A stretch of 40,322 nt of DNA from a candidate division WOR-3 bacterium (GCA_039802265.1 JBDRWI010000015.1:1-40322); one strand, 5' to 3'. Counted from the stretch's first letter, positions 15,001 to 21,000 are shown. Program-made: the numbers.

Positions 15001-18000
15001 ATTCCCTGATGAAACCTGCTGGTCTCAGGCAAAACAGGCATACTCTGATTTCATATCGGCACAGGCAGACTTATTAAGGGCAAGGATTGAGGCAAGTAAA
15101 GAGTAAATGCCTAAAAGTCCAAAATACCTAAATACCTAAATGCCTAAATGCCGGAAGACTCAATGAAACAGCAAGTAAAATGATAATTCTTTTTTGTCTT
15201 TTTTCTCTTACTGCTGACCTGCGCTGGGTTGAGGTTGATGTCTCATTATGGCAGGATGGAAGGGCGGATTTTGTCTATAAAGTCCGCTGGAATGTCATTT
15301 CCGGCTCAATGAGTGCATTCTATCTTATGGGCCTTTCAGTTGAACCATTCTTTGACTATGAAAATTCTTACGCCCTTGATGAATATAATAATAAATATCC
15401 AATAGACATCAAAGACCTGGGCGGTGGTAAATATGATATTGTGCTCGGTAAGGGGAAGAGATACGGACCCGGTCAGATTACCTTTATAATCCATTTTGGT
15501 GGTGATTTAGGTAGGAGTAGAAATCTTGCTGTAACACAGAGTGAATTTGGTGAACTTGTAGTATTCCACTGGGCGCCACCCCAGTGGGATGAACCGCTGG
15601 AACATTATACTGTAAATGTGTATTATCCCATAGAAACAATGAGCAAACAGGTGAACCCGGATGACTATGGCTTTCGCACGGAAAAATTTATGAACGAAAG
15701 ATATCTTCTGGACTACTTTGGGCAGGAATTTAAGGGAAAGTACTATTTTGCAGTTCGGATTCACAAGAATGATATATCGACAATGGAGAAAATGGAGATC
15801 CAGCAGTATATTCCAGCTAATTATTTTAACGCCGAAAAGTTTGGCCGGATTGAAATCAAACCCGAGCGTAGACGAAAATTTTTTATCCCTTATGACTTGC
15901 TATACATGTTATTTTCCATAATTCCATACCTATTCTATTCCAATCGCAAGGCACAAAAAATAAAAGGACTGTACAGTGAGGTACAGAGCCTGAATTGGCT
16001 TAGAAATGACTGGGTCCCACCAAAGATTGAGGTTGCAACATTCAGGAAGTCCGGCAAGGTTGCAAAACTTGACCTGATTGAGGCTGCAATATTCCTTGAC
16101 TATCCGGTTAATAAGGTCTTTACAATAATTGCTGAAAAATTGCAGAAGGATGGAATTTTGAGTATCTTGAATTACAATCCAATCAAACTCTCGGTTTTGC
16201 AAAGACCATCGGGTTTGAAATACTACGAGGCAATGTTTCTTGATGCAATAAAGAGTGATGGCACAATGGATGAGGCAGGATTAAAATCGCTTGTGATGCA
16301 GGTTGTTGAGAATATCCAGACAAAGGCCTGGGATTGTGACCTAAAGGCAACCAAGGCATATTATACCGAAAAGATCGGCTCCCCTGATGTGGAAGAACCG
16401 ATTGATGAAACTTACAGTGATATGTCTTATTATTATTATCTGCGCAACCAGCAGTTTGGCCGCAGTGGTTATTATCAACAGCTGGAGGATGGATTTGTCA
16501 TATATGGTGAACCAATAAAAGATTATTCAACTTTTATCCGTTCTGACGCCTGCCACAGTGCCTGTTATGTCCATACCGCCTGTCATGATGCCTGCCATTC
16601 GGCCTGCCACAGTGCCTGCCATTCGGCCTGCCATAGCGCCTGCCACAGTGCCTGCCATTCGGCGTGTGTGAGTGGAGGGGCGCGGTGATAATCAAATACC
16701 TAAAATCTAAAATGCCTGAATGCCTGAATGAGAAAATTAAGCTCCAAAATCAAAATTTAAAATGTCAAACAAATTCCAAATTCCAAATATCAGACGGAAA
16801 AGAAGAGATAAATTTAGAATGGGTGGACGGGTTTGTAAGAGAAATCAAACCATATATATATGTAAGAGATATGGATAATCTTTTAATTTTAATACCCAAT
16901 CAAGTACATAGATTGAATCAATCAGGTGTTACAATTCTAAATTATCTTCTCAAGGGCAACTCAGTCACCAAACTTCTTGGATTGGTAGGAGATAATGAAA
17001 CGAAAAGAAAAGAGTTGCATTACTTTTTCTGCGATTTGCGGGCGATTGTTAGTGGATGTCTCAGGGAAGGTGAAAAGAGAGAGGCAATATCCTATTATGA
17101 ATTTAATGGTGATCTGAATAATTATCCAGTCCTTTCAGAAATTGCCGTTACCTATCGTTGCAATCTTGATTGTGAGTTCTGTTATGTTGGTCATAGGGAT
17201 TACCCTGAACTTGGTACTTCTGATTTGAAAAAGATTATCTTTAAGATATATAATGAAGCGAAAATCCCATCAGTCAGTTTTACCGGCGGCGAGCCTCTAA
17301 TGAGAAATGATATTGTAGCACTTGTTGAATATGCCCGCAAGATTGGCTTATGGACAAATTTAATAACCAACGGCACCTTGCTTGACAGCAAACTTGCAAA
17401 ATCCCTGAAACAGGCAGGCTTGAATAGTGCCCAGGTAAGTTTAGAAGGTCCTGATGCCAAAATACACGATAGAATCACTGGAATTCCCGGTTCTTTTGAT
17501 AATACAATTGCCGGGATAAAATACCTCCTGGAACAGGGTCTATCTGTCCACACAAACACTACTGTCTCAAGACATAACATAGATTATCTTCCAGAAATAT
17601 TAAAGTTGATAAAATCGCTGGGATTGAGAAGGTTATCAATGAATTTAATGATTCCCTGTGGAAGTGCCGAGAAGAGAAGGGATTTATGGGTCTCATATTC
17701 AGAAATCGGTCAACATATATTAAAAATCAAATACCTTGCGCAAAGGGAAAATATCCAATTCTTATGGTATTCCCCGGTGCCGATGTGCGAATTCAATCCC
17801 ATAGCCTATGGTTTTGGCAATAAATCCTGCGCTGCAATTACCGGGCTTCTGAGCATTGACCCGCTGGGTAATGTCCTGCCCTGTTCTTCCTGGAGAGAAC
17901 CGGTTGGCTCGTTATTAAGAAATAGTTTCAAAAAGATATGGCATTCTCCGATGCTGAGTTATTTTAAGAATGCTGATTATGCACCGGCAGAATGCCATCA

Positions 18001-21000
18001 ATGTACTGAATTTAAGATATGCAAAGGTGCCTGTCCATTATTCTGGAAGGTATTCTCTCCGGGGCGAGGCAGGGAGATTGATTGAGATGGACTCTTATTC
18101 CATTCTTGGTAAAATCTCCCCAAAATTGAGAAATTTTGTTACTGTCATTTTATTTTTTACCGGTTTTGCCCTGCAATTGAGTTCAAGGAATATCCTCCCT
18201 GGATTACCCTTTATTGCTTCCTGTGTTTTACTGAACTGGATTAAAGGTTTTTCGATAAAACCAATCCGCCCCCAAAAATTGGAATGGACAGAAGTAACAC
18301 CGGAAAAGATTGCCATGGTTGGCAGGCATTGTGAGGGTTTAAAGAGAATCCCTAAAAATCTGGGATGTGCCGCATTTATAATCATCACTTTTTTCGTAAT
18401 ATTCGGCATAGGCTTTATTTGGGAGTTATTATCAAATCTAAGTAAATATCAATTTTCGGTCTTTGTCTTAATTATTGATTCTATAATTATCTTTTCCGGC
18501 GTAATGTTGAGTGGCGGCCGTGACATCTGGATTCCCAATAATCTGGATGTTAAAATTCCGATTATTGAAAGAATATTAAATCACCCTCTACTTAAAAAAG
18601 ACCCCAGTCTGCAGATAATACCTTACCTTGAAATCGGCAAGACAAAGGATGGCACATTTCCCAATGATACAAGGATACTGATTAAATTTAAGGATGCACC
18701 AGAGGATTTTATCGGTGTGCAATTTCAGATTTCAATAAATGATGTTCAGGGCAAAAAATATCCTTATTGCTACTGTGTTATCATTGCCCGGAAAACCTTC
18801 GGGTTATTTGCGAAATTTGTTCCTGTAGAATTAGAAAGAATAACCATTGAAACTGAAAGAAGCAGTGATACAGATGTGATTATAATTCGCCAGACCACAA
18901 CAAAAAATACTGGTTATTACACAGACACCCAGGTCCAAGATTATATCCTGAAAAACAGCATCAATATTACAAAAAGTATTCTTTCTAATCCAGCATAAAA
19001 TCATCTGTAATTATAGCAAATCTTGACTTTGTTCAATAAATCACTATAATTGAGATGGGGTTATTTGTTTTAAAACATAGCCGCAAGTATTAGTTTGCGG
19101 ATAAAAAGACTTATGGTAGCGCGAAAAAAGAAAAAATAATTTTAATGGGGTAAGGCTTAATAGCCTCTGATTAAATCAAGGGTATGCAGTTTGCACTACT
19201 TATGGTGCATAAAAAATGCTATGAAATTTAATAAGATTATCCCCTCCCTTGACGGGAGAGGATTAAGAGCCTGCCCTGAATCCTGACCCGTCTTCAGGAC
19301 AGGTTTATTTCAGGGTGAGGGTGATAAAATTGGTTACCCCTCACCTTTGCCCTCTCCCACAGAGGGGGAGAGGGATTTGATATATCTGAGGAGGTAACTT
19401 GAAGATTCATGAATATCAGGCAAAGGAATTTTTCAAAAAATACGGTATACCTGTGCCGAAAGAAAAGGTATGCCTCAGTCTTGATGAAGTGATCTCGGCA
19501 GCAAGGGAGATTGGATTGCCCTGTGTTATCAAGGCACAGGTGATGGTCGGCGGAAGGGGAAAGGCGGGTGGCATAAAAGTGGCAAAAACCGAAGATGAGG
19601 TCAAGACTTATGGTTCGCAGATACTCGGGATGGAGATAAAAGGACTAAAGGTGAAAAAGGTTCTGGTCTCTGCCGCGATTGAAATTGCATCCGAAGCCTA
19701 TTTGGGCATTATCATTGACCGTAACGAGAAAAAGACCGTATTAATGGCATGCAAAGAAGGAGGAGTAGAAATTGAGGAAGTAGCAAGACAGAAACCCGAG
19801 GCAATATATAAAGTTTATGCTGACCCCTTAATCGGATTACTTGAGCACCGGGCAAGAGAGATAGGACTATTTCTTTATGGCAGTTCTAAGAATGCATTTG
19901 AGTGTGCGTCAATCGCAGACAAACTTTATAGATTATTTGTTGAAAATGACGCCTCACTTGCCGAAATAAATCCTTTAGTTGTAGATAAATCGGGAAATCT
20001 TATCGCCCTTGACGCCAAGATAAACTTTGATGATAACGGACTTTACCGCCACCCCGAGATTGAAGCGTTGAGGGATAGAGAGAGTGAAGATGAAAATGAA
20101 TTGCTCGCTCGAGAAAGAGACCTTTCTTATGTAAAACTCAATGGTAATATTGGCTGTGTGGTAAACGGCGCCGGTCTTGCCATGGCAACGATGGACCTGG
20201 TAAAACATTTTGGCGGTGAACCCGCAAACTTTCTTGATATTGGTGGTTCCTCTTCGCCGGAAAAGGTGAAAAATGCTTTGGAAATTCTATTAAGAGATAA
20301 AAATGTAAAGGTGATATTCTTCAATATCTTTGGTGGTATAACCCGCTGTGATGATGTAGCGCTGGGGATACTTGAGGCGAAAAAGTCTTTAAATATTAAA
20401 CAGCCAATCGTAGCACGCCTTACCGGAACAAATGAAGACAAGGCAATGGAGATTCTTAAAGAGGCGGGGTTGATCTTTGCAAAGACAATGGATGAAGGCG
20501 CAAAAAAGGCAATTGAACTTTTAAAATAACAAGGAGCACCATAAAATGAGTATTTTGGTAAATAAGAATACAAGATTGGTTGTTCAGGGTATCACCGGGC
20601 GTGATGGCAGTTTCCATACCCGCCAGATGCTAAATTATGGAACAAATGTAGTAGCGGGCGTAACGCCTGGCAAGGGAGGAATAGAGGTAGAGGGTGTACC
20701 TGTCTTCAATTCAGTCGCGGAGGCAGTGAAGAAAACAAATGCCAATACCTCGGTGATTTTTGTCCCGGCAAAATTTGCTCCCGGCGCAATGTATGAAGCC
20801 ATTGATGCCGGTATTGAACTGATTGTCTGTATATCTGAGGGAATTCCCACGATTGAGATGGTAAGGATTGTCGCGTACTTAAAGGATAAAAAGTGCCGAC
20901 TCATCGGCCCCAATTCACCGGGACTCGTATCACCTGGCGAAGCAAAAGTAGGAATTCTGCCCGGACATATCTTTAAGAAGGGGAAAATCGGCGTGATCTC

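Follow-up and report, generated by a model that had tools for sequence, protein, structure and literature searches.

A Cys-His-repeat membrane protein and its own radical SAM (rSAM) enzyme, encoded together in the genome of a candidate division WOR-3 bacterium, point to an undescribed cross-linking of a whole membrane protein's tail, and not to phage defence. The tail of this protein, g644, is on sequence grounds very probably the substrate of g645, a dedicated RRE-containing rSAM/SPASM enzyme, and on balance we favour reading the locus as a four-gene protein-tail maturation cassette, in which g645 would install Cys thioether cross-links on a tail retained in the cytoplasm. The pairing of carrier and rSAM enzyme occurs in many uncultured bacteria and Asgard archaea. 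The window analysed is a 40,322-nucleotide stretch of the WOR-3 genome, and the features of the cassette are collected in Table 1.

Table 1. Genes, domains and sites of the cassette, with positions counted along the window.
Feature	Position	Strand	Description
130-aa soluble ORF	14714-15106	+	no known family; cassette's fourth gene; start may be 14717
g644	15180-16688	+	502 aa; single-pass membrane protein, distantly DUF2207-like; proposed substrate
Predicted extracytoplasmic beta-sandwich of g644	15210-15830 (~aa 11-217)	+	pLDDT ~95-98
Single transmembrane helix of g644	15879-15944 (~aa 234-255)	+	followed by a basic stretch
Predicted cytoplasmic alpha/beta domain of g644	16002-16490 (~aa 275-437)	+	common to (Cys-Ala)n-tail carriers
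Tail of g644	16545-16685 (aa 456-502)	+	proposed modification site
GGAGG Shine-Dalgarno (16674-16678) and GTGA overlap	16674-16688	+	read from sequence
g645	16685-18085	+	RRE + radical SAM + SPASM
g646	18087-18998	+	303 aa; four predicted membrane helices + alpha/beta domain; putative accessory protein

A preliminary description of this DNA had presented a three-gene system, and its order of g644, an rSAM/SPASM gene and g646 is retained here; its count is not, the cassette having four genes at this locus and the 130-aa ORF upstream having been overlooked. g645, with its stop at 18085 and Pfam matches to Radical_SAM and SPASM, probably starts at GTG 16685, which overlaps the TGA of g644 and is in frame with the g645 ORF; the ATG at 16712 has no Shine-Dalgarno (SD) sequence, and translational coupling of g644 and g645 appears probable. 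A promoter and terminator scan was uninformative (20 promoter-like sites against 14.7 expected), and a single raw-read RNA run, with no reads on the whole 17-kb stretch, gives no evidence either way on expression, the two data sets that contain the sequence being probably DNA.

The short hydrophobic N-terminus of g644 is likely a signal peptide, and is followed by a beta-sandwich that matches ribophorin I/Ost1 (Z 14.8, rmsd 2.8-2.9 Å over 174-182 residues); the ribophorin-I/aminopeptidase-like N-domain and helical tail proposed earlier were both reproduced. The transmembrane helix (residues 238-268 form a helix in the predicted model) is marginal, falling under the hydropathy threshold in g644 itself, and in 59 of 61 homologues one or more segments beyond residue 40 exceed that threshold. 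The alpha/beta domain shows a middling match to GOLPH3 (Z 6.1, rmsd 4.3 Å over 135 residues), and hhalign of A1 against A6 gives 99.9% for this domain. Weak matches to TIGR04222 occur in 11 of the 61 homologues, and within the order the protein's body is ~72% identical.

g644 itself has no Pfam match, including to PF09972, and no NCBIfam or PADLOC family covers it, as previously stated. The broader claim that no family model exists was too strong, as 29 of 61 homologues match the DUF2207 N-terminal domain at E≤0.05. Two homologues scored individually (P0015 and P0087) pass the DUF2207 cut-off, and Atlas DUF2207 clusters score 0.94 for g644, which by these comparisons is a distant relative of DUF2207. 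Because of this kinship and the structural model, the beta-sandwich is placed outside the cell and the tail would be cytoplasmic.

The C-terminus of g644 consists of eight C-H-x-A units followed by CVSGGAR, an ending that agrees with the preliminary description and that shuffling does not reproduce (at most two C-H-x-A units in 10,000 shuffled versions of the protein). Its 47 residues comprise 10 Cys, nine His, 11 Ala, two Asp, one Arg and no Lys. The eight units include one CHDA, and an additional H-T-A unit is preceded by Val. The repeat had been read as His-Xaa-Ser, which does not hold: the tail contains no H-x-S and nine H-x-A motifs. Among 92 g644 homologues, 74 have at least three CH[SNDTA]A units, 11 have two and one has one, while the six without any all end before the tail region; these counts are partly selected by a query that contained the tail.

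The g644 tail is under complete purifying selection as judged from codon comparison, residues 462-496 being 100% identical across 30 related genomes in which 54% of the codons differ synonymously. A recent repeat expansion is ruled out, the tail codons having diverged while the protein remained invariant. Across 830 repeat units, from tails picked by a His-containing pattern, His is kept in 781, with mostly Phe or Tyr as substitutes; the first position is aromatic in 821, the second is variable, and the third is Ala in 793 and Gly in 29, the latter mostly in Phe- or Tyr-bearing units. The substitution of His by Phe or Tyr fits aromatic cross-linking better than thioether chemistry.

g645 carries radical SAM cysteines at C150, C154 and C157 and SPASM cysteines at C359, C373, C391, C428, C431, C437 and C441 (numbered from ATG 16712), the seven SPASM positions being invariant in 66 His-type enzymes. 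Of 43 orthologues, 25 match PqqD/RRE (best E 1.8e-10), and g645 itself does not. The family thus has, by sequence, the features of an RRE-dependent rSAM/SPASM maturase: CxxxCxxC, SPASM and, via the orthologues, RRE. The best solved structure for the g645 profile is SkfB (E 5e-34). All of the 25 best NCBIfam matches lie under their cut-offs, in line with the earlier statement that g645 falls below every one. Its active-site residues, mapped by motif landmarks, read YTISSS, matching StsB (YTISKL) at four of six positions and CteB at one of six; an unrelated SPASM enzyme of the same genome reads YTISRR, and the active-site profile is therefore not diagnostic.

The link between enzyme and tail was assessed with a DNA pattern built on the tail only, which returned 80 loci with flanks, 68 of them real carrier loci; the 12 dropped as non-carriers comprise ten without a carrier ORF, together with L025 and L066, and 38 further loci with short flanks were used for tail statistics only. 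All 68 carriers found in this way are g644 homologues, and a g645 orthologue is present in 62 of their loci. Among the six others, three genomes keep a g645 orthologue on another contig (570, 559 and 610 bits), a fourth contains another complete copy of the locus, and the remaining two loci sit at the edge of a contig, so that the orthologue is kept elsewhere in the genome for four of six. In Thorarchaeota the pairing is maintained in a rearranged, divergent order. Distances between carrier bodies correlate with those between rSAM enzymes (Mantel rho 0.77, against a best of 0.21 in 999 permutations), and 37 of 50 share the same nearest neighbour in both. Such co-variation is also expected from the shared descent of a linked operon, kin not being independent. 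Four of the 13 Asgard rSAM loci with lower scores lack a carrier within ~7 kb, and one thorarchaeote locus (L364) has an rSAM gene without a nearby carrier. It is linkage, retention in trans and co-variation that support the enzyme-tail pairing, and they uphold the earlier proposal in so far as the tail is very probably the rSAM substrate; the HXS kinship attached to it is not supported, as discussed below.

The gene for g644 occurs as a single copy in 40 of the 48 genomes of its WOR-3 order, a core-like distribution; the g645 enzyme family occurs in 122 of 301 sampled Asgard genomes. By sequence matches, the carrier class extends to more than a dozen bacterial phyla in addition to Asgard archaea. 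Neighbour clusters present in at least three loci include no conserved peptidase or exporter, and no other conserved candidate substrate. Candidate viral copies were rejected: 19 pattern matches had no rSAM homologue, and carrier-profile matches were to the repeat itself only. Four multi-match viral copies that were examined proved to be shadow frames of Pro/Val/Thr repeats, and the G214 match is likewise a shadow repeat.

A sister system has a His-free (Cys-Ala)n tail and an rSAM enzyme of a related branch, present in 49 of 77 such loci and in 23 of the 26 that span at least 8 kb. In the rSAM tree, left unrooted owing to long outgroups, the 44 enzymes of (Cys-Ala)n loci form one branch (SH-aLRT 100), and tail type changes six times along the tree as against 41.8 with shuffled labels. 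The existence of a His-free sister with a related enzyme implies that Cys and Ala, and not His, are the elements of a shared chemistry; a long branch, however, lies between the two enzyme groups, and 23 positions distinguish them, so that they may not share chemistry. One hybrid tail, combining His-type and (Cys-Ala)n sequence, lies ~3 kb from a His-type-like enzyme. Heme binding through CxxxCH, as in a multiheme c-type cytochrome, was rejected for the g644 tail: there is no CxxCH, against six overlapping CxxxCH, the tail would lie on the cytoplasmic side, and sister tails lack His.

The 130-aa ORF has a strong SD and adjoins the carrier in 30/30 WOR-3 loci. It occurs in 41 of 271 genomes of the phylum, 40 of them with a His-type carrier, and in 0/9 genomes with a weaker-scoring carrier; in the top Asgard loci it lies between divergent rSAM and carrier genes in 27 of 29. 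On this comparative evidence, it is tied to the cassette in both WOR-3 and Thorarchaeota. Its 417 homologues include no Pfam domain in the 120 listed, and no match was obtained in Atlas, among PDB sequences or in NCBIfam. The model of g646 (pLDDT 88.7) has middling matches to 1yb3, SycN-YscB and Spa15 (Z 6.9-7.3, rmsd 3.3-4.2 Å over 106-124 residues), weakly suggesting an alpha/beta domain like type III secretion chaperones; Foldseek returned no match at E≤0.001. A g646 homologue is found in 41 of the 68 carrier loci, with an unrelated coiled-coil protein there instead in 14, and hhalign (0.15%) rejects the latter as a g646 homologue.

The observed genes, their conservation, linkage and co-variation can be assembled into a mechanism in which binding, modification and function are predicted. 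g644 would be inserted into the membrane with its beta-sandwich outside and its GOLPH3-like domain and (C-H-x-A)n tail in the cytoplasm. g645, co-translated with it, very probably binds the cytoplasmic part through the RRE, the tail serving as a RiPP-like core. The subsequent chemistry is put forward with only a slight preference: g645 would abstract hydrogen from the invariant Ala, or from a neighbouring backbone carbon, and join that carbon to a tail Cys, giving a ladder of thioethers, more likely S-Calpha, at -2 Da per ring. As no protease or exporter is conserved, the cross-linked tail would stay on full-length g644, leaving the His residues as a rigid metal-binding or protein-docking array, with g646 and the 130-aa protein as presumed accessory partners. 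For the complex, a housekeeping envelope role involving metal or redox is the most likely function, although tentative. A bolder version, in which the ladder runs to as many as eight to ten cross-links of an undescribed type and is retained on the protein as an output by which an envelope complex would sense metals or redox state, is doubtful; its rungs could be serial Cys-Ala thioethers, or His-Ala cyclophanes with free Cys between them.

The same pair could perform other chemistry, with a triceptide-type cyclophane joining the His (or Tyr/Phe) ring to Ala in H-x-A and Cys left free for metal. This is unlikely, although g644 offers nine H-x-A motifs and His-type enzymes hold invariant residues of their own, because aromatic residues are absent from the repeat of the related (Cys-Ala)n system and Gly occupies the third position in 29 units, mostly those bearing Phe or Tyr. 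The sole triceptide-related model scored directly, TIGR04261 of the GRRM-system maturase, which we take to have a triceptide role, gives g645 44.9/310 bits. The aromatic, variable and Ala positions do follow the Omega1-X2-X3 pattern set out in the available text of PMC12912966. Alternatively, the tail might be left unmodified, as a helix whose Cys and His bind metal (Zn, Cu, Ni or Fe-S) and which docks g645 at the membrane or supplies its cofactor, the enzyme acting elsewhere. Linkage alone does not separate a substrate from a partner, zinc-ribbon membrane proteins accompany 11 of the 68 carrier loci, and 10 Cys and nine His sit on a predicted helix at i/i+4 spacing; an RRE is, however, a mark of enzymes acting on peptide substrates, the invariant Ala and the Ser/Asp order exceed the needs of metal ligation, the enzyme clade follows the tail sequence, and the neighbour clusters offer no other substrate, all of which makes this reading rather improbable.

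It is still less probable that the tail is a RiPP core that, once modified, is cleaved and set free as a small cross-linked peptide, the membrane protein then being a giant leader. The C-terminal position is core-like, g646 or the 130-aa protein might have a processing role that has escaped recognition, and the accessible supplement of one RiPP-mining study (PMC10288494) names such a tail as an uncharacterised precursor; against this stand the lack of a peptidase or exporter in the conserved neighbour clusters and the retention of the large body. Least credible is the boldest reading in the preliminary description, kinship with the HXS anti-phage system on the cytoplasmic side, to which the His-rich repeat on a large protein beside an rSAM gene, and a weak, generic match of g645 to HxsC4 (96/500 bits), lend some resemblance. 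The g644 tail has no H-x-S and one Arg in 47 residues, as opposed to the basic HxS repeats of periplasmic HxsA, and the HXS range is 99.7% Pseudomonadota, according to the available portion of PMC13128918. There is a single rSAM enzyme, far under cut-off on both HxsB (TIGR03978, 50.1/370 bits) and HxsC (TIGR03977, 81.9/267.9), and the 130-aa ORF does not match HxsD (TIGR03976), which a genome search did not find in this 89% complete genome, control genomes being silent too. The predicted cytoplasmic location, the core-like single copy and the His-free sister also oppose it, as do housekeeping flanking genes: defence systems are absent from the ~15 kb to each side, the closest defence genes being those of AbiE, ~16 kb off.

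Thioether installation on the tail by g645 remains the reading we lean towards. On the bolder version outlined above, the modification would be of RiPP type, C-terminal and without a leader, on an integral membrane protein whose role is core to the cell, and that protein would unite a ribophorin-I-like fold with a GOLPH3-like one. Given the core-like distribution in one WOR-3 order and the 122 Asgard genomes, this would be a modification of widespread physiology, as opposed to a niche natural product. The cassette provides a biochemical handle on DUF2207-like proteins, and its chemistry is open to testing with the enzyme, the 47-residue substrate and a naturally His-free sister pair. As had been asserted, no family model for the system was found; nor was a paper describing it, in a search that left most subscription papers outside its reach.

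Tested examples of RiPP-type rSAM chemistry acting on a whole protein are few (QhpC, CrpA, HxsA), and none in the literature found concerns an integral membrane protein and its C-terminal tail. DUF2207 proteins (PF09972/PF20990) resemble g644 in their N-terminal domain and overall layout, and differ in that g644 itself has no Pfam match. Canonical members have Gly-rich tail ends, and to our knowledge no dedicated rSAM enzyme. The accessible text of PMC10457818 describes a Streptococcus mutans member that affects acid and peroxide tolerance and biofilm formation. The HXS system likewise applies rSAM maturation to His-containing repeats on a protein and not on a short peptide; it differs from the cassette in using two rSAM enzymes together with HxsD, in placing basic H-x-S repeats close to the N-terminus, in having a cleaved periplasmic effector and a +8 Da change, as given in the part of PMC13128918 available, and in a range nearly restricted to Pseudomonadota.

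CXXX-repeat systems (TIGR04115 maturase, TIGR04117 target) share the placement of Cys at every fourth residue beside an rSAM gene, with eight C-x-x-x-C steps in g644, but the TIGR04117 target is short (98 model positions). TIGR04117 matches 16 of 61 carriers weakly, g644 (9.9/50 bits) and g645 on TIGR04115 (32.7/350) are under cut-off, and a precomputed PF27846 tag is on 14 of 92 g644 homologues; the literature search found no paper on either TIGR model. Triceptide systems have in common the Omega1-X2-X3 motif, their His-specific enzymes having been compared via family models only. The group 1 sactisynthases SkfB and StsB, the former the best solved match and the latter sharing four of six active-site residues, act on short peptides in the available text of PMC10288494; g645 also scores 101/625 bits on StsB and is unlike it at active-site positions 5-6. 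QhpD/QhpC similarly involves RRE-dependent rSAM thioethers retained in a protein subunit, but QhpC, a small subunit, has its leader at the N-terminus and is cross-linked through Cys-Asp/Glu (PMC13692751, in part), and g645 is under cut-off on the QhpD model (TIGR03906, 40.9/453 bits). CrpC of Methanococcus voltae, an RRE-rSAM-SPASM enzyme with seven SPASM Cys, forms thioethers on the C-terminal Cys-rich repeat of CrpA, according to the available sections of PMC13692751, and so resembles g645 in enzyme type and in proposed target; the differences lie in the 28.8 kDa size of CrpA, its 17-residue repeat, C-x-x-Q/D motifs and N-terminal leader, and in the ranthisynthase profile of CrpC, which was compared via its family model only (TIGR04463, 64.3/525 bits for g645, under cut-off). 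By analogy with the argument made there for CrpC, the seven-Cys SPASM domain of g645 could leave one iron open, and the same sections report that domain-domain contacts aid CrpA recognition and propose a metal-related role.

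The order of g644, g645 and g646 in the preliminary description was reproduced on the window, although its count of three genes was not, as a further ORF of 130 aa upstream had gone unmentioned. The nearest database relatives bear the name candidate division WOR-3. The tail of g644, a single-pass membrane protein, contains 10 Cys, 9 His and 11 Ala, and eight C-H-x-A units, against no more than two in any shuffle of the protein. It had been taken for a His-Xaa-Ser repeat, but its motif is H-x-A and it has no H-x-S. Residues 462-496 are 100% identical across 30 related genomes, in which the two domains of g644 are 72% and the linker 57% identical, and silent differences occur in 54% of tail codon pairs, the same rate as in the remaining gene. 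Judged from these alignments, the tail is ancient as a protein feature and strictly conserved.

Features of the window, and of loci (L-numbers) found by DNA-pattern scans of genomes and metagenomes
Feature	Position	Strand	Remarks
ORF, 665 aa	2498-4495		N-terminal matches to transposase-type HTH
Probable lipoprotein gene	13460-14347		no family match
130-aa ORF	14714-15106	+	absent from the preliminary description
g644	15180-16688	+	502 aa; ends in 47-residue tail
g645	probable start GTG 16685	+	overlaps g644 stop; GGAGG 6 bases upstream, read from sequence
g646	18087-18998	+	303-aa membrane protein
Short AT-rich direct repeats and hairpin-like elements	15106-15160, 16690-16790, 19020-19380		intergenic regions and g645 5' end
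AbiEi/AbiEii toxin-antitoxin pair and methyltransferase	34358-36692		inside polysaccharide biosynthesis cluster
430-460 aa RRE/SPASM protein	L169:2911-4224, L185:2713-4101, L196:9621-10913, L209:7825-9105, L192:2888-4207		
Carrier with Gly-rich ending	L059:5639-7132		
Duplicated carrier and g646 pairs	L028:4566-11487		

The lipoprotein gene also lies upstream of the cassette in five close relatives. It is mostly uncovered in two other samples, which show a 1-base insertion at 14344, so that a frameshift may alter its 3' end. Contigs of other samples diverge or pile up at the AT-rich sites, suggesting a genome-wide repeat.

The AlphaFold model of g644 (mean pLDDT 83.7, with the tail mostly below 50) runs from a beta-sandwich through one long helix and an alpha/beta domain to a helical tail. 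As proposed earlier, the beta-sandwich resembles ribophorin I/Ost1 (Z 14.8, rmsd 2.8-2.9 Å, 174-182 residues) and the non-catalytic N-domain of M1 aminopeptidases, while residues 296-437 give a middling match to GOLPH3 (Z 6.1, rmsd 4.3 Å, 135 residues). A Pfam search of g644 itself returned no match; among 61 homologues, 29 have N-terminal matches to DUF2207 and 11 match TIGR04222 weakly, and Atlas DUF2207 clusters match g644 with a score of 0.94. By these profile matches, g644 is a distant DUF2207-like protein. Its predicted topology is N-out, C-in, with a membrane helix below the hydropathy threshold used. At one locus, L059, the C-H-x-A tail runs on into a Gly-rich ending that resembles the ending of canonical DUF2207/TPM proteins, which suggests that the repeat arose within a Gly-rich tail of this kind. 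A 480-aa database homologue, P0093, has five such units joined to a radical SAM domain, a join that is likely a frameshift or read-through artefact, the alternative being a true fusion.

The association of tail and enzyme was examined with a repeat-only DNA pattern in GTDB species genomes, which gave at least 118 stretches, 80 of them with flanks; 68 were kept as real carriers (proteins bearing the repeat tail) and 12 dropped. All 68 are g644 homologues, with hosts in Chloroflexota, Spirochaetota, Planctomycetota, Myxococcota, Bacillota, Pseudomonadota, Omnitrophota, Acidobacteriota, Gemmatimonadota, Nitrospirota, Thermodesulfobacteriota, further candidate phyla and Thorarchaeota. One cultured bacterium with the cassette is Desulfobulbus alkaliphilus DSM 24258 (L076). 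A g645 orthologue is present at 62 loci, with full-length orthologues 35-53% identical. Where it is missing, it lies on another contig of the genome (L027, L057, L080), a second complete locus exists in the same genome (L013), the stretch stops at the tail (L041), or the locus begins at a contig edge and a search of the genome found no orthologue (L060); in these genomes the cassette is split at differing joints while its parts are retained. Starting from this linkage, the g644 tail is quite probably the substrate of g645. In L028, L013 and L024, duplicated pairs of carrier and g646 accompany one rSAM per genome, suggesting that g644 and g646 act as a pair and that the enzyme works in trans.

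The enzyme has a CxxxCxxC motif and a SPASM domain whose seven Cys are invariant in 66 enzymes of C-H-x-A (His-type) loci. Its N-terminal RRE is matched by PqqD in 25 of 43 orthologues, though not in g645 itself. All 25 best NCBIfam matches fall below cut-off, as do the separately scored HxsB, TIGR04463, TIGR04115, TIGR04261 and TIGR03906 models, and the best solved-structure match to the g645 profile is SkfB. Six active-site residues, as defined in PMC10288494, were mapped by motif landmarks and read YTISSS in g645, four of six as in the sactisynthase StsB and one of six as in the ranthisynthase CteB; this likeness is weak support, since the genome also encodes an unrelated SPASM enzyme with YTISRR.

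Because hybrid tails were seen among the g644 homologues, metagenomes were scanned for His-free (Cys-Ala)n tails. A related rSAM stands at 49 of 77 such loci, and at 23 of the 26 of at least 8 kb (counts that include a few overlapping loci). Of the carriers at these loci, one class shows homology to g644 over 395 columns (hhalign, 99.9%). Enzymes of the (Cys-Ala)n loci form one branch of the rSAM tree (44 rows, SH-aLRT 100), on which tail type changes 6 times, against 41.8 when shuffled, and WOR-3 enzymes split by tail type, not by phylum. Shared descent of the linked operon contributes to this pattern, and to the correlation of carrier and enzyme distances among His-type loci (rho 0.77). The enzyme family occurs in 122 of 301 Asgard genomes; among 13 lower-scoring loci there, a (Cys-Ala)n carrier is adjacent in nine and no carrier lies within ~7 kb in four. 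One Asgard tail combines both repeat types, with a single enzyme ~3 kb away that scores 194 bits to g645 versus 158 to a (Cys-Ala)n-type enzyme.

At some (Cys-Ala)n loci, one tail-bearing carrier or two in tandem are immediately preceded by a 430-460 aa protein that matches RRE and/or SPASM models but matches the radical SAM core weakly or not at all; from its sequence it is a possible pseudo-enzyme partner. A second (Cys-Ala)n class of 300-540 aa (L142, L143, L149, L152, L155, L160 and others, several from gut metagenomes), by profile not homologous to g644, has a short C-terminal extension after the repeat, and its genes usually follow that of a related rSAM.

In the proposed mechanism, g645 would bind the cytoplasmic part of g644 via its RRE and form thioethers from tail Cys to Ala or neighbouring carbons; the modified tail would remain attached to the membrane protein, its His left free for metal or partner binding. 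We put thioether chemistry at slightly better than even. The main rival is that g645 makes His-Ala cyclophanes, favoured by the units themselves, in which position 1 is aromatic in 821 of 830 and position 3 is Ala in 793, in tails picked by a His-containing pattern; what His-type and (Cys-Ala)n tails have in common is Cys and Ala. The tail could also be an unmodified metal-binding one, or be released as a peptide; no conserved peptidase or transporter was found among carrier-locus neighbours. For the cassette as a whole, a housekeeping role in envelope, metal or redox functions is a tentative suggestion.

A g646 homologue is present at 41 of 68 carrier loci, a zinc-ribbon protein at 11, and an unrelated coiled-coil protein at 14, never together with a g646 homologue. 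The 130-aa ORF belongs to an unnamed family of 417 members and adjoins the carrier in 30 of 30 WOR-3 loci. Of 271 genomes of the phylum, 41 encode it; 40 of those 41 belong to the 42 genomes that have a full His-type carrier, and all nine genomes with a weaker-scoring carrier lack it (the five examined are all (Cys-Ala)n-tailed). In the Asgard sample it lies between divergent rSAM and carrier in 27 of the best 29 loci. Its presence at merely 7 of 68 pattern loci makes it accessory. At 11 mostly Spirochaete loci (L007, L032, L041, L048, L051, L053, L054, L064, L070, L071, L073) an unrelated 200-250 aa gene without Pfam family replaces it upstream of the carrier.

PADLOC has no family for g644, as previously stated, nor for g646 or the 130-aa ORF; g645 gives generic viperin matches only, and partial MADS matches of the ABC transporters and a methyltransferase are taken to be generic. 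Only the AbiE pair, ~16 kb away, is a clear defence system. Literature searches turned up no account of the g644/g645 cassette. The PMC10288494 supplement includes, among 'Other Uncharacterized' precursors, fragments of one tail of the His type and of three (Cys-Ala)n tails, with rSAMs marked RRE-fused in both rows checked; the pairing was thus caught by automated mining, yet not described.

CrpA/CrpC (PMC13692751) and QhpC/QhpD come closest among tested precedents. Kinship with the HXS anti-phage system, as suggested previously, was not supported. According to PMC13128918, HXS combines two rSAMs and HxsD with a periplasmic effector that is cleaved and bears basic H-x-S repeats; its range is 99.7% Pseudomonadota. 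The g644/g645 cassette differs in motif, enzyme pair (a single rSAM at the locus) and charge, its tail not being basic; 40 of the 48 genomes of the order carry one copy of the gene, and the location of the g644 tail probably differs from that of the periplasmic effector. The cassette is real, widespread and undescribed, a probable system for RiPP-like radical SAM modification of a protein rather than a member of HXS.
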